The notes beneath the pieces are model-generated. The model did not search any database. It was not told the DNA's origin and worked only from the letters and a program-made list of their open reading frames with translations. Source: Candidatus Thorarchaeota archaeon (GTDB lineage: Archaea; Asgardarchaeota; Thorarchaeia; Thorarchaeales; Thorarchaeaceae). From it: 32,000 nucleotides of DNA. Positions 12,593-17,748 of this stretch are shown here, in pieces (position 1 is the stretch's first letter; every line of letters starts with the position of its first letter). The DNA lies in NCBI GenBank assembly GCA_008080745.1, contig SHMX01000003.1:90001-122000 (forward strand), written 5' to 3'. A program made the translations under genes and the position numbers.

Positions 12593-12959
12593 CTGACTCC
12601 GAGAAATCGCTTCTGTTTCTCAAAGAAATGCCTGCCTGGTCTTGTCAAAAAAAGTTTGACTCAAGTCCTCAAGTGTGGATTTTGAGAACAGTCTTTTTCG
12701 TTTATTTGTTGAGTGGGATTCCTGTAATTATTTTGGCGAGAATTTTTTTCATAATATCATGAATTCTCTCTATCATAATTAAAAGTAAGGTGTACAAAAC
12801 ACAAATACCATAGTGAGTACAAGGACTACCACTCTTTCCTTGTTTATCCATAGGAAATTTATCCAAAAGAGTAAGATCATTAAATTTGTAGTTATTCCAA
12901 GTTATATGACTACGAATACTACATCTAAATATCAATTTCTCCTCAACACAACATTACTA

Positions 12960-12978
12960 TATCCTTTTTTCAAGGATA
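12960..12978. promoter_or_regulatory. Inverted repeat TATCCTT-N5-AAGGATA directly upstream of the HTH-PAS gene
   Basis: Perfect 7-bp arms ending 6 nt before ATG 12985. Confidence 0.4.
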
Positions 12979-12984
12979 AATAAC

Positions 12985-15900
12985 ATGCCTCAATCATACC
13001 AAAGAGAGTTAGAAAAAATCAAAGAAGTTCTTAGAGAGAATCCAAGAGGCATGACTATTCTCGATGTTGCAAATAGTATCGGTATGAATAGAAATACAGT
13101 AGCTCGCTATCTTGATGTCCTCAGAATTTCAGGTCAGATTGAGATGAGAGCATTTGGCTCAGCAAAAGTATTCTTTCTCTCACATAGAGTTCCAGTTTCA
13201 GCACTCATAGATTTTTCATCAGATGCCCTAGTAGTAGTAGATGAGCATTTGAAAATCATTCAGGTAAATGAGAACTTTCTAAATATGATTCAGATGAAGA
13301 GAAAGGATGTTGAAGGACTATATTTGACCGATTTGAAGTCTTCACTTTTTAGAAAATCATCGATAGTAACTAAAATAAAAGAGGCATTCGATGAAAAAAC
13401 GAATCAGGATATACCATTTGAAGCGTCCAGTGGTTCACAATATTTCTTAGTTAGGACTATTCCAACGTCTTTTGATACGGGTAGTCCTGGAGTAACAACT
13501 ATTTTTGAGGATATAACAGAGCATAAGAGAGCAGAGGAAGAACTACGAAGGAGTGAGGAAAAGTACAGGACTCTGGCGGATGAATCTCCCGTGGGTATCG
13601 TGATCTTTATTGGAAACGATATAAAATACATCAATACTGCTTTTTCAAAGATGGTGGGACGGAATAGGGAGGAGATATTAACCTTTCAAATCAACGATAC
13701 ATTACAATATGTTGATGAACGAGACCGTGAGAGAATTATAAAAAGAATAGAAAAATCAGATATATCGTTTAAGGAAATGGAACTCATTCGGATCATAAGA
13801 CCGACCGGGGAAACGCGCTGGATTGAAGCACGAAGTAACACCATAATATATGAGGGACAACAAGCAATTCAGGTGCTTCTAATAGACGCAACCGATAGGA
13901 AGCTTGCTCAAGAGGCACTGGAGGAGAGTGAAAAGAAACATCGTACCCTTGTTGAATCCATGTCAGATATGGTTTTTGTGTTTGATAAAGATGATAGATA
14001 TGTAGAGTACTATTCGTCCAAAGATGCTGAATTGTATGCAGAACCAGATGAGTTTCTAGGCACTCATATTTCCAAGACATTACCTCCAAATGTTTACAAA
14101 CCATACATCGAGTATGCAAAAGTAGTAAGAGATACTGGACAAAAAGCTCAGTATGATTATGAATTGAAGATAAATGGCAAAAACCAATGGTTCGCATGTG
14201 TCCTAACGAGATCTGAAGAACAAGGCAACATAATCGCTTCTGTCCGGAACATAACTCAGAGAAAAGAAATTGAGCAAGAATTAAAGCAGGTTTTAGAAAG
14301 AACCCAGAAACTGGAAAGTATTGTTAACAGAGGACCAGTAATTGTGATATCACTTCTCATTGATAAAAAATTAACAGTCAAATTCGTTTCTGAAAATATC
14401 AGCCGTTTAGGTTATTCAGCGGTAGATTTTATCAAGGAAGATAGAAACTGGATTGACATAATCCATCCAGAAGATATTGGAATGGTGAGAGAGCAACTAA
14501 ATCAGCTTGAATATTCTAATCAGGAATCTAATCAGATTTATCGGATAATAACCAACGAAGGTGATATTCGATGGGTGTCTGTGGCAATTAGAGTGCTATC
14601 AAATCGAGATGAAAAACCTGTTCATATTCAAGGAATTATCCACGATATCACTGAACAAAAAGAAGTATTACAAGCTCTTGAGGATAGCGAACAGAAATAT
14701 CGCTCTCTTGTAGAGGAGTCTTTACAGGGAATAGTTGTTTTGCAGAATGGGAAAGTTGTTTTTGCAAATGATGCTTATTGTAAAATCACTGGCATGCATA
14801 GAGAAAAATTGTATGCTATGGAACCAGAAGAAACCTGGAAGGTAATACATCCAGAAGATGTAGCTAAACTGAAAAAACGGAATAAAACTCGTGCACAGGG
14901 AGGTTATGTGAACCCATATTTTGCATTTCGATACATCATTTCTGATGGCAGTATTAGATATGTAGAATCATACTCCAGTATCATCAACTACGGAGGTAAG
15001 GAAGCCTTACAAGTTCTCGTAATTGATGTGACTTCTCAGACTGAGGCTGAGGTCGCTTTAGAAGAATCAGAAATCAGATATCGTTCCTTAGTCGAGACCT
15101 CACTTCATGGAATAATTATCATGCAGGGGGATAGATCCATCTATGTCAATAATGCGTTTTGTCAGATTATTGGACTTGCAAGGGAAGAACTACTTGATAT
15201 GAAATTCGATGAGATCAAGAGATATATCCACCCGGATGATAGAGAAGAAAGGGTGTTGAGATTTAGGAAATGGATTGATGGTATAGCGACCGAGAATAAA
15301 TCAGAGTTTAGATTGATTAGACCATCTGGAGAAATCCGTTATGTCAAAGCCTACCTTTCCTCTATGGAAGTTAGAGAAGATCGAATGATGCAGGTTCAAA
15401 TCATAGATATCACAGAACGAAGATTAGCCGAAAAGAAATTAGATATGGCTCAAGAATCCAAACAATGCCTATTAAATACAATTCAAGACTTTCTCTTCGT
15501 TCTTGATGTTGACGGAAAAATTATCGAGATAAATCCTACAGTTACTAAGCATCTTGGATATTCAAGTGGAGACCTTATTAACACTGATTTTTCGAAATTG
15601 TTTTCAAAAGAAGAGCAAATCAAAACAGTTCTAGAAATTGTTCTCCACAAAGGCTCCGCAAAAAGAAAACAGATAATCAGGTCCAAATATGGAAAAGATA
15701 TTCCTATCGAAACAAATTTTTCGATAGGTCCTTGGCTGGGAAAAGATGCCATCCTGGTACTAGCTCAAGATATCACGGAACAAGTAGAAACAGATAAGCT
15801 GATGTCCCTTCAGCGTGAATTAGGATTCAAACTAAGTTTCATGTCAGATCTTACTGAAGCATTATCATATATTCTAGAAGTTATTTTGAAGGAAGGAGGA

Positions 15901-16287
15901 TTAGATGCAGGTGGAATCTATCTGACAAATTTCGAAGAAAGAAAACTGGAACTCTTTGTATCAAGAGGGCTCTCCGCCAAATTTACCAGCAATATTATTT
16001 CCGTTGATTTTGATAATGATTTGGCTCAACCAGTTCTCACAGGTCAAAAGTCATCTTATGTTTTTGCAGAGGATGACCTACCTTATGAAATACAGAAAGA
16101 GGGCATTAAATCTGCAGTTTCAATTCCCATCATTCTGGTTGGAAAAATTGTAGCAATTATTAACCTTGCTTCAAGAAAAGAAGTAGCACTAGCTGAAAAT
16201 ACTCTGAGAATAATCGAAGCTATTTCTAACTTGGCTGGAGAAACAATTCTTCGAATGCAGAATAAGGGAATATCTCTCGATATATAG
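12985..16287 (+). CDS. One-component regulator: winged HTH - 7x PAS/PAC - GAF, no kinase domain
   Basis: N-terminal NPRGMTILDVANSIGMNRNTVARYLDVLRISGQIEMRAFGSAKVF (wHTH), seven PAS/PAC units, and a C-terminal GAF (GGIYL...SIPIILVGKIVAIINLAS). Confidence 0.92.
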   Translation: MPQSYQRELEKIKEVLRENPRGMTILDVANSIGMNRNTVARYLDVLRISGQIEMRAFGSAKVFFLSHRVPVSALIDFSSDALVVVDEHLKIIQVNENFLNMIQMKRKDVEGLYLTDLKSSLFRKSSIVTKIKEAFDEKTNQDIPFEASSGSQYFLVRTIPTSFDTGSPGVTTIFEDITEHKRAEEELRRSEEKYRTLADESPVGIVIFIGNDIKYINTAFSKMVGRNREEILTFQINDTLQYVDERDRERIIKRIEKSDISFKEMELIRIIRPTGETRWIEARSNTIIYEGQQAIQVLLIDATDRKLAQEALEESEKKHRTLVESMSDMVFVFDKDDRYVEYYSSKDAELYAEPDEFLGTHISKTLPPNVYKPYIEYAKVVRDTGQKAQYDYELKINGKNQWFACVLTRSEEQGNIIASVRNITQRKEIEQELKQVLERTQKLESIVNRGPVIVISLLIDKKLTVKFVSENISRLGYSAVDFIKEDRNWIDIIHPEDIGMVREQLNQLEYSNQESNQIYRIITNEGDIRWVSVAIRVLSNRDEKPVHIQGIIHDITEQKEVLQALEDSEQKYRSLVEESLQGIVVLQNGKVVFANDAYCKITGMHREKLYAMEPEETWKVIHPEDVAKLKKRNKTRAQGGYVNPYFAFRYIISDGSIRYVESYSSIINYGGKEALQVLVIDVTSQTEAEVALEESEIRYRSLVETSLHGIIIMQGDRSIYVNNAFCQIIGLAREELLDMKFDEIKRYIHPDDREERVLRFRKWIDGIATENKSEFRLIRPSGEIRYVKAYLSSMEVREDRMMQVQIIDITERRLAEKKLDMAQESKQCLLNTIQDFLFVLDVDGKIIEINPTVTKHLGYSSGDLINTDFSKLFSKEEQIKTVLEIVLHKGSAKRKQIIRSKYGKDIPIETNFSIGPWLGKDAILVLAQDITEQVETDKLMSLQRELGFKLSFMSDLTEALSYILEVILKEGGLDAGGIYLTNFEERKLELFVSRGLSAKFTSNIISVDFDNDLAQPVLTGQKSSYVFAEDDLPYEIQKEGIKSAVSIPIILVGKIVAIINLASRKEVALAENTLRIIEAISNLAGETILRMQNKGISLDI

Positions 16288-16350
16288 AAAACTATTCGTA
16301 AAAATAAATAATGCTGCAAGGCAGCAATGCATAACAATCTGCACGCTAAT

Positions 16351-16365
16351 CGAAGGGTTTTATAA
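16351..16365 (+). promoter_or_regulatory. Archaeal BRE/TATA-like promoter (CGAAGGG-TTTTATAA) pointing into the intergenic hairpin cluster
   Basis: TATA at 16358-16365. Canonical spacing places the start site near 16386-16388, the first base pairs of hairpin 1. No + strand ORF follows. Confidence 0.55.
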
Positions 16366-16384
16366 CTTCAATATAGGTACCAAA

Positions 16385-16591
16385 CGTGAACAGCAGCTGC
16401 ACAAAATCTGATGGTCCCTTAGGCACACACCAAAATCATCAGAAGTAGCTGTTCGTGACTTGCTCGCATCAAAGTGGTTCGGCCTCTCCGCCGAGCCACA
16501 CACTATCTATCTTCTTTAGGGGCTAATATACACTATCCACATCATATCGAAAGATAGTGTGACAGAATCACATATGGACTCTGTGATTTTG
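16385..16591 (+). ncRNA. Candidate structured non-coding RNA (four hairpins), family unknown
   Basis: Helices 16385-16457, 16474-16499, 16530-16560 and 16563-16591. Six G-U pairs on + would be A-C mismatches on -. An upstream TATA is present. Confidence 0.55.
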
Positions 16592-16602
16592 CATCTAAAG
16601 TA

Positions 16603-17748
16603 TTACTTTCTAACAAGATTACGAAGTTTATCTGCTGAGAACTCGTGAAGACGTTCTTTAGCTTCCTCACGTGCAGCTTGATGCTTCTCAAGAAACTCCA
16701 TCATTCTGGGTACGAGAATCTGCTTACAAGCACCACAGAGAATATCTCCACTTACACATTTCATTCTAATATCAGCAAGTTCTTTGTCATCAGGCATGAA
16801 GATGAAAGTGTAATACTTGAAAACAGAACAAATCTCTGGATTAGCTCCAAGTTCTCGTTGTTCTTTGGCAGTCGTTCTTCCACCCGTAAAGGCAGCTAAC
16901 ACCTTCTTCTTAGCCTTCTTTGGAGAATCGGTCGTATAAATAGCAGACATAGGATCAGAAGATGACATCTTTCCCCCTTCTTGAAGACCAGGAACAAACT
17001 TGTTTTGGATAGATGCTGGTTTATAGTAGCCAAGTTTTTCCGCTACGTCTCGCGTAATTCTCCAGTATGGATCTTGATCAATAGCACAGGGAATAATACA
17101 TGGTGTCTTCCTTTCATGAATCCAAGAGTGTAAGAAGGCAGGAACTGCTTGCATAGATGGATAGAAGATACCCCCAATATTCATGCTATTCTCAAATCCA
17201 AAAACAGCGCGTGCTGTAGAAAACGTGACTTTCTTCGCCACTTTTACAGCTAATTCATACATCAAATCGATATGCTTAATGTCATCCAAGATGAATGTTT
17301 TCTCAGGATCGAATCCTGTGGCGATGACATCTAGTGCATTATCTCTAGTCAATTCATGAACCTGTTCATAGGTCATATCTTGATCGAACCAGAACTTCTC
17401 ATCATTGGTTAACTGGAAGTAGAGTGGGACTTTGAAACAATCTTGCATCCATTTTGTGAACATCCAGGGAACGAGGTGACCGATATGGACATCGCCACTG
17501 GGGCCTCTTCCAGTGTAAAGAATGAACTTATTGCCCTTCTCATATTCTTTCATGACCCAATCAAGATCCCGATGGGAAAAGAATAACTCTCGGTCTAGAA
17601 GGATATGGCTTTCTCCGGCAATTTTCTCAATCTTTTTTCTTAATTTCTCATCGATTCTTTCAGTACCAAATTCTTCGATGAGACGATCGTAGTCGATAGT
17701 ACCCTTGACTTCCCAAGGGGTGACTAGCATATCATCTTCGTTAGTCAT
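16603..17748 (-). CDS. trpS: Tryptophanyl-tRNA synthetase, archaeal/eukaryotic type
   Basis: VTPWEV, YTGRGPSGDVHIGH (HIGH), PCAIDQDPYW and KMSSS. Confidence 0.98.
   Translation of the reverse strand: MTNEDDMLVTPWEVKGTIDYDRLIEEFGTERIDEKLRKKIEKIAGESHILLDRELFFSHRDLDWVMKEYEKGNKFILYTGRGPSGDVHIGHLVPWMFTKWMQDCFKVPLYFQLTNDEKFWFDQDMTYEQVHELTRDNALDVIATGFDPEKTFILDDIKHIDLMYELAVKVAKKVTFSTARAVFGFENSMNIGGIFYPSMQAVPAFLHSWIHERKTPCIIPCAIDQDPYWRITRDVAEKLGYYKPASIQNKFVPGLQEGGKMSSSDPMSAIYTTDSPKKAKKKVLAAFTGGRTTAKEQRELGANPEICSVFKYYTFIFMPDDKELADIRMKCVSGDILCGACKQILVPRMMEFLEKHQAAREEAKERLHEFSADKLRNLVRK

Follow-up and report, generated by a model that had tools for sequence, protein, structure and literature searches.

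The window analysed here is a stretch of 32,000 nucleotides (G000:C3:90001-122000) from G000, a metagenome-assembled Thorarchaeota genome of 3.16 Mb that is 98% complete, with roughly 38% G+C and an estimated contamination of 4.8%. Three of its contigs (C14, C17 and C18) have start regions much richer in G+C than the remaining genome, and these may be part of the estimated contamination. The runs listed for positions 15600-17400 of the window were only two, both of DNA and none of RNA, from one marine-sediment study, and they are probably the source of the assembly; contigs from both runs are identical in sequence to the window locus, with zero variants. For G001, the sole congeneric genome (contig WJMJ01000018.1), the name on record is 'Promethearchaeota archaeon', and that of its trpS is 'Lokiarchaeota archaeon'; the closest homologues of the G000 trpS carry Thorarchaeota names.

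A gap of 315 bp (16288-16602) separates a gene for an HTH-PAS-GAF sensor regulator from a convergent trpS gene, both lying where a preliminary description of this DNA had placed them. That description proposed that the gap encodes a novel, promoter-led RNA on the + strand. From the regulator to trpS, the features of the locus are as follows.

12985-16287, + strand: HTH-PAS-GAF one-component sensor regulator of 1100 aa (Pfam: N-terminal winged HTH, multiple PAS domains, C-terminal GAF)
16288-16320: stretch after the PAS-GAF stop, poorly conserved between G000 and G001
16321-16344, + strand: upstream block GCAGCAATGCATAACAATCTGCAC, which contains an imperfect inverted repeat (TGCAT-N7-CTGCA), near-identical in G001
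16349-16365, + strand: BRE/TATA element ATCGAAG-GG-TTTTATAA, with ATCGAAG and TTTTATAA both identical in G001
16388-16506, + strand: RNA core of 119 nt, identical to G001 (L009:1571-1687) at 112 of 119 positions (94%)
16388-16454, + strand: hairpin 1, made up of a lower stem, an asymmetric internal loop (8 nt on the 5' side vs 1 nt on the 3' side), an upper stem and an apical part
16455-16473, + strand: linker GUGACUUGCUCGCAUCAAA, 100% identical in G001, with weak structure in both the MFE and the centroid fold
16474-16499, + strand: hairpin 2, of 10 bp with the loop CUCUCC, whose stem holds all four core-helix substitutions, with pairing kept
16500-16517, + strand: 3' tail ACACUAU and, behind it, the T-rich tract CUAUCUUCUUU, a probable termination region
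16507-16602: core end to trpS stop, essentially unalignable between G000 and G001
16530-16591: two species-specific hairpins (16530-37/16553-60 and 16563-72/16582-91), unconserved in G001
16603-17748, - strand: trpS (tryptophan-tRNA ligase, Pfam PF00579), the downstream convergent neighbour

When the gap was compared by BLASTN with 60 relatives, as the preliminary description had suggested, it proved to be conserved in one of them, G001, where it is flanked by the orthologous regulator and trpS in the same gene order. The two regulators share 50-62% protein identity, with an identical HTH recognition helix (NRNTVARYLDVL), and the two trpS genes are 91% identical in protein, with identity falling to 55% at third codon positions and to 42% at 4-fold sites. 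The identity of the core thus lies far beyond the 42% that the trpS 4-fold sites give as the neutral level, and is in the range of the stable RNAs of the two genomes (RNase P RNA, 91%; SRP RNA, 95%; 5S rRNA, 100%). Set against a neutral background that is saturated, the core shows the constraint of a housekeeping RNA, and the comparison of the two genomes shows it to be under strong purifying selection. This constraint is not that of a protein. The gap contains no + strand ORF of at least 40 aa, in keeping with the earlier statement that it lacks a credible ORF, and its two short - strand ORFs are spurious. A small protein encoded on the - strand across the core was rejected, since its start and end differ between the species (47 aa in G000, 92 aa in G001) and a 2-nt indel breaks the frame; the four substitutions in this ORF include two non-synonymous and no synonymous changes. 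Judged by its reading frames, the core is non-coding.

Archaeal TATA boxes are centred about 26-27 bp upstream of the transcription start, with the BRE directly upstream. The BRE/TATA-like sequence reported earlier, CGAAGGGTTTTATAA, is present at 16351-16365, and the TATA centre lies 26.5 nt from G16388 (29.5 nt from the conserved block in G001), so that at the level of motifs the candidate has its own BRE/TATA at about -26, as expected for an independent archaeal intergenic sRNA. With G16388 the conserved block begins and hairpin 1 has its base, and this position is also part of a T/G pyrimidine-purine step. Identity between G000 and G001 is only 44% in the spacer from the TATA box to the start (16366-16387) and returns exactly at the expected start. 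The preliminary description had put the start at about 16386, at the base of the hairpin; the geometry of promoter and hairpin base stands, and the predicted 5' end moves to G16388. The tRNA, RNase P and SRP genes of G000 have the same type of promoter, (C)GAA[AG]-N-TTTATA, and a genome-wide regex search for the composite BRE/TATA motif returned 24 sites, 16 of which fall in the intergenic 10% of the genome, a strong enrichment.

The conserved block upstream of the promoter reads GCAGCTTTGCATAACATTCTGCAC in G001, with different adjoining bases, and the pattern shared by both species across 16321-16344 is GCAGC..TGCATAACA.TCTGCAC. Archaeal activators bind upstream of the BRE, and the block may serve the RNA promoter as an operator or activator site. 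A second copy was not found in the G000 genome, where the sole look-alike (C3:238176) lies within a small GTPase ORF. Being unique in the genome, the block has no regulon to back its role as an operator.

Folding of positions 16380-16600 (221 nt) with RNAfold, on both strands as had been proposed, gave a z score of -4.38 on the + strand, where none of 200 dinucleotide shuffles was as good, and -2.11 on the - strand. For the core itself, the scores were -5.32 on + and -1.48 on - in G000, and -3.97 on + and -0.95 on - in G001. In these models, the core is shown to fold strand-specifically on +. The hairpins of the preliminary description were reproduced, including the long hairpin (16388-16454), the 10-bp hairpin (16474-16499), the 16530-37/16553-60 helix and the distal hairpin (16563-16591). 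In hairpin 1, an upper stem of 9 bp (16407-16415 with 16435-16443) carries the apical part CCC-UUAGG-CACACA-CCAA; G001 differs in the internal loop only (A16401 to G; 2 nt deleted at 16403-16404), and both strands of the stems are invariant. The helices described earlier for this hairpin hold, except for the lowest three pairs (16385-16387/16455-16457), which are not kept in G001, and the conserved helix begins at G16388. Two registers of the lower stem are possible because of the CAGCAGCUG repeat. On the 5' side of hairpin 1, positions 16393-16400 (GCAGCUGC) form a perfect palindrome; palindrome and CAGCAG repeat together give rise to the two registers, and the MFE register differs between G000 and G001.

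The linker between the two hairpins forms at most a weak 4-bp hairpin, and the predicted folds make it a candidate single-stranded interaction site. In hairpin 2, the changes from G000 to G001 convert pair 16481-16492 from G-C to A-U, 16478-16495 from U-G to U-A and 16479-16494 from U-A to U-G, so that on the - strand each species would have an A-C mismatch. The core fold contains four G-U pairs on the + strand, and, as the preliminary description had argued, the non-Watson-Crick pairs of the core helices are G-U on + and would be A-C on -. Covariation between the two available sequences carries no statistical weight, as its single compensatory pair was reached by 250 of 500 shuffles, and it serves here to check consistency only. 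The predicted structure therefore leans mainly on thermodynamics and strand asymmetry.

The core is directly followed by CTATCTTCTTT (16507-16517), where G001 has UAUAUUCUC, and T/pyrimidine-rich tracts such as tcttcttt follow the 5S, SRP and tRNA genes of G000. U-tracts serve as the terminators of archaea (PMC8716108). Based upon the likeness of the T-rich tract to those behind stable-RNA genes, the 3' end is probably near 16515-16518, which would make the RNA about 128-131 nt long. Read-through to a T4 run at 16587-16590 is possible. Beside its trpS stop, G001 has a different, unrelated hairpin (GGTGAGAT...ATCTCACC), and in G000 the stretch from 16507 to 16602 folds better on the - strand (z -3.34 vs -1.96 on +). 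The hairpins at 16530-16591 are probably the trpS 3' UTR or a terminator region between the convergent transcripts, outside the conserved RNA. Since conservation is limited to 16388-16506 and the T-rich tract comes directly after, the RNA is likelier to be about 120-130 nt than 205 nt. The lower end of the size proposed earlier (about 130-205 nt) is thus retained, whereas the 205-nt extent goes beyond the point at which conservation stops. A 3' end approaching the trpS stop, also part of that proposal, is not supported, given the unconserved hairpins at 16530-16591 and the T-rich tract already present behind the core. Two segments of the G000 sequence, CACACUAUC (16499-16507) and ACACUAUC (16530-16537), are each able to pair with GAUAGUGUG (16553-16561); because the 3' partners are missing in G001, this alternative pairing does not count among the conserved features of the RNA.

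Could the candidate belong to a known class of RNA? A search of the whole window with Rfam 15 at gathering thresholds gave 0 matches, and at E values up to 10 the region 16200-16700 gave only a 14-bit match on the - strand, to a nematode snoRNA; in this check with covariance models, which had been proposed at the outset, no family matches the candidate. ARAGORN found 0 tRNA or tmRNA genes in the window. Identity with SRP RNA, RNase P RNA or 5S rRNA is ruled out by the G000 copies elsewhere (C2:303444-303753, C12:4769-5102 and C2:514232-514351, respectively). The SRP RNA among these scores 94.1 bits against the Archaea_SRP gathering score of 96.5, and would therefore be missed by annotation at the gathering threshold. 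Across G000, ARAGORN reported only 22 tRNAs, perhaps because intron-containing genes are missed.

Three further classes were considered by their motifs. C/D box sRNAs are about 50-70 nt long, and their K-turn is formed by a C box (RUGAUGA) close to the 5' end together with a D box (CUGA) close to the 3' end; reading of the candidate found no terminal C/D pair, and its sole CUGAUGG is internal and fully Watson-Crick paired in the 9-bp upper stem, which rules this class out. H/ACA guide RNAs resemble the candidate in their hairpin-hinge-hairpin-tail layout and their length of about 120-130 nt, and the candidate has an ACA (16500-16502) right after hairpin 2, so that an ACA box 3' of a hairpin is there. 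The candidate differs from them in lacking, in the hairpin with the ACA, a two-sided pseudouridylation pocket (about 5-8 nt on each side) topped by a K-turn/K-loop. Its hairpin 2 is an uninterrupted 10-bp stem without an internal loop; the loop in hairpin 1 has 8 nt opposite 1 nt (no more than 4 on the 3' side, in the other register); there is no K-turn/K-loop or tandem G-A; and hairpin 1 is followed by GUGACU rather than ANA. No Rfam H/ACA match was found on the + strand. The view that the hallmarks of tRNA, SRP RNA, RNase P RNA and C/D and H/ACA guides are missing is thereby borne out, the ACA after hairpin 2 being the only fitting element. Archaeal SECIS elements belong to the 3' UTRs of genes that contain an in-frame UGA, and they carry a GAA/A internal loop beneath a short helix of G-C pairs. 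SECIS was ruled out since the flanking ORFs are without UGA and end in TAG or TAA, and the candidate has a GCACAAAA/A internal loop below an A-U rich upper helix of 9 bp. Outside the window, ARAGORN called a tRNA-SeC gene (G000:C5:28105-28195), which makes selenocysteine decoding in G000 probable.

In order to follow the candidate beyond the two species, we built a covariance model (R1) from the two copies. Within the class (87 genomes), the model matched G000 and G001 only; about 125-150 further Asgard genomes gave no match, and with filters off nothing rose above noise at 24 syntenic trpS loci of other genera. In all, about 210 Asgard genomes other than these two gave no credible match. Two marginal matches (19.6 and 17.2 bits) fall within long ORFs and were regarded as chance. 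An exact scan of genome contigs for a 19-mer apical motif found nothing outside G000 other than G001; scans of viral contigs and JGI metagenomes for the same motif were empty, as were a scan of JGI metagenomes for a 20-mer linker motif and one of viral contigs for a gapped pattern of the upper stem. The 90% cluster of trpS among about 15 billion proteins holds G000 and G001 only, with next relatives at most 78% identical, so that this collection has just these two genomes of the genus. As the covariance model is of little reach, not finding the RNA beyond the genus does not prove its absence there; the best reading of these searches is that the candidate is genus-restricted.

We also looked for mRNAs with which the RNA might pair. 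The longest antisense match to it in the genome is 14 nt, as chance would give, and segment-wise duplex energies in translation-initiation regions showed no excess over in-gene control windows. Scoring of full-length duplexes was dropped, as it yielded unrealistic duplexes genome-wide. The Shine-Dalgarno motifs GGAGG and GAGGT are in use in G000, and by complementarity the CUCUCC loop and the apical sequence CACACACC could pair with Shine-Dalgarno regions. One such pairing lies at the following gene.

G000:C6:23596-25065 (- strand) and G001:C125:2202-3668 (+ strand): FAD amine-oxidase-like gene, with a Shine-Dalgarno complementary to the apical part of hairpin 1

The predicted duplex of UUAGGCACACACC with this Shine-Dalgarno region has an energy of -20.7 kcal/mol in G000 and -18.7 kcal/mol in the G001 orthologue. 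The two sites use different bases (GGUGUGUGUUUAA vs GGAGUGUGCCUUAA), and they are not independent, being homologous in the two genomes. By predicted energies, the gene may be a weak lead to a target. Pairing of the linker with the start region of a C4 gene (-24.4 kcal/mol in G000) was set aside because it is lost in G001.

Taken together, the conservation pattern, the strand-specific fold, the geometry of the promoter and the lack of Rfam, tRNA or transposon identity bear out the proposal of a novel promoter-led RNA on the + strand, and the sequence comparisons support a real, undescribed gene for a structured small RNA of no known class. Within G000, the comparisons show a genome-typical promoter and a terminator-like tract at a single-copy, syntenic locus. 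We favour, with moderate confidence, the reading that 16388 to about 16517 (+) forms a gene of its own, encoding a structured, non-coding RNA of ~120-130 nt that is a trans-acting regulatory sRNA restricted to the genus. The invariance of the linker, the apical loop and the C-rich loop, one stem free to covary and the restriction to a genus together form the pattern of a lineage-restricted regulatory sRNA; a comparable pattern is seen in enterobacterial sRNAs. We infer its transcription, its exact ends, its control by the neighbouring regulator and its trans-acting mode. Transcription would start about 26 nt 3' of the BRE/TATA element (16349-16365), itself preceded by the operator-like sequence at 16321-16344, and would most likely stop at the T-rich tract 16510-16517. 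The product would have four parts: an interrupted hairpin with a CACACA apical loop, a linker of ~19 nt, a hairpin with a CUCUCC loop and an ACACUAU tail. A signal could control its synthesis via the operator, with the neighbouring HTH-PAS-GAF protein as a possible sensor, and the RNA may use the unpaired segments that do not vary (the linker and the apical and C-rich loops) to act on mRNAs, plausibly near the Shine-Dalgarno, or on a protein.

The main rival accepts that the RNA is real and independently transcribed and makes it the scaffold of a lineage-specific ribonucleoprotein or a protein-sequestering RNA. Between G000 and G001 the candidate is as constrained as SRP RNA, its changes are confined to the hairpin 2 stem and one internal loop while the stems of hairpin 1, the loops and the linker are invariant, and no mRNA target stands out. 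The invariance of the hairpin 1 stems exceeds the need of a purely base-pairing sRNA and hints at protein binding; it fits a protein-bound RNA at least as well as a regulatory sRNA. A housekeeping RNP RNA would, however, be expected beyond one genus, yet the model was blank in 85 family genomes, 24 trpS loci and ~125 Asgard genomes, and no K-turn or known protein-binding motif was recognised by reading. We consider this alternative possible but unlikely. A bolder form, in which the RNA is the core of an unseen ribonucleoprotein of this Asgard genus, with SRP-like constraint and a hairpin-hinge-hairpin-ACA layout and unrelated to known RNP RNAs, strikes us as distinctly improbable. Another alternative dispenses with the independent gene, making the block a structured 3' UTR of the HTH-PAS-GAF mRNA, either as a stability or termination element or as a processed, 3'-UTR-derived sRNA. 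The block has the orientation of that gene and lies 100 nt 3' of its stop codon, an arrangement kept in G001, and since no oligo-T terminator (no T-run of at least 4) lies between the stop and the RNA, read-through from the regulator gene is possible. Such a 3' UTR would not account for a BRE/TATA of the stable-RNA type conserved at the right distance, nor for an identity that falls to 44% between TATA and block and returns at the predicted start, and the 100 nt from stop to block are otherwise poorly conserved. This leaves the 3' UTR, in our estimate, quite doubtful.

Two other explanations do away with a + strand RNA. The block could act on the - strand, as a distal trpS 3' UTR element, given that in G000 and G001 alike the trpS stop is 97-215 nt upstream of it on that strand and that the adjoining stretch 16507-16602 folds better on -. 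On that strand, however, the core is no better than shuffles (z -1.48 and -0.95), the G-U pairs and G-U/A-U switches turn into A-C mismatches, the 96 nt in between are unconserved and the conserved + strand BRE/TATA is left unexplained, making this very improbable. Finally, an intergenic stretch rich in inverted repeats might be a feature of the DNA or of a mobile element, such as an IS200/IS605 end or omega RNA, a MITE, an attachment site or a protein-binding array. IS200/IS605 omega RNAs and MITEs are likewise structured non-coding intergenic DNA of 100-200 nt, from which the candidate differs in being single-copy and syntenic, with no gene for TnpB or TnpA next to it. That the block is a repeat or the end of a transposon is rejected on its single copy in a 98%-complete genome and its place in the same syntenic gap in both species. 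In addition, no transposase or TnpB gene is adjacent, the block is absent from viral contigs, and the wobble-preserving substitutions fit pairing in RNA and not in DNA. The preliminary description had named an IS200/IS605 or MITE end as what would overturn it, and the sole significant match in the genome is the locus itself; we give this explanation next to no credence.

As a trans-acting regulatory sRNA, the candidate has among its closest known systems the trans-encoded intergenic sRNAs of archaea, such as sRNA154 and sRNA162 of Methanosarcina mazei and the Haloferax sRNAs. With these it shares a BRE/TATA unit in the gap, a length of about 100-150 nt, several hairpins, conserved unpaired segments, a T-rich 3' flank and conservation only among close relatives; it differs in having no homology of sequence or structure to curated families and in its uncultured Asgard host. 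The bacterial sRNA genes beside their own transcription factor, oxyR/oxyS and gcvA/gcvB, are a close parallel to its setting. As in these, the sRNA gene adjoins a sensor-regulator gene and a conserved operator-like block lies upstream of the sRNA promoter. Unlike these, the pair is tandem and not divergent, its host is an archaeon, regulator binding is only putative and the block is unique in the genome. That the HTH-PAS-GAF protein regulates the RNA promoter, the two forming a sensor-to-sRNA module, is plausible but speculative. A full-text literature search found no described Asgard sRNA or regulatory RNA, nor this RNA. On present evidence, the candidate is one more orphan sRNA, in two genomes. 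Asgard archaea are the closest known prokaryotic relatives of eukaryotes, and the locus offers a well-delimited sRNA candidate for which a promoter, a start, a fold and a probable end can be named; should the neighbouring PAS-GAF sensor control the RNA, this would be a first sensor-to-sRNA module in the lineage.

The regulator gene itself is preceded by a conserved element. Directly 5' of its start codon, both species have the block TCAACACAA[C/A]ATTACTA...TTTTTCAA[G/A]GA (12943-12978), surrounded by DNA that is otherwise unalignable between G000 and G001. This block does not resemble the operator-like sequence upstream of the RNA, and may be the promoter or leader of the HTH-PAS-GAF gene.
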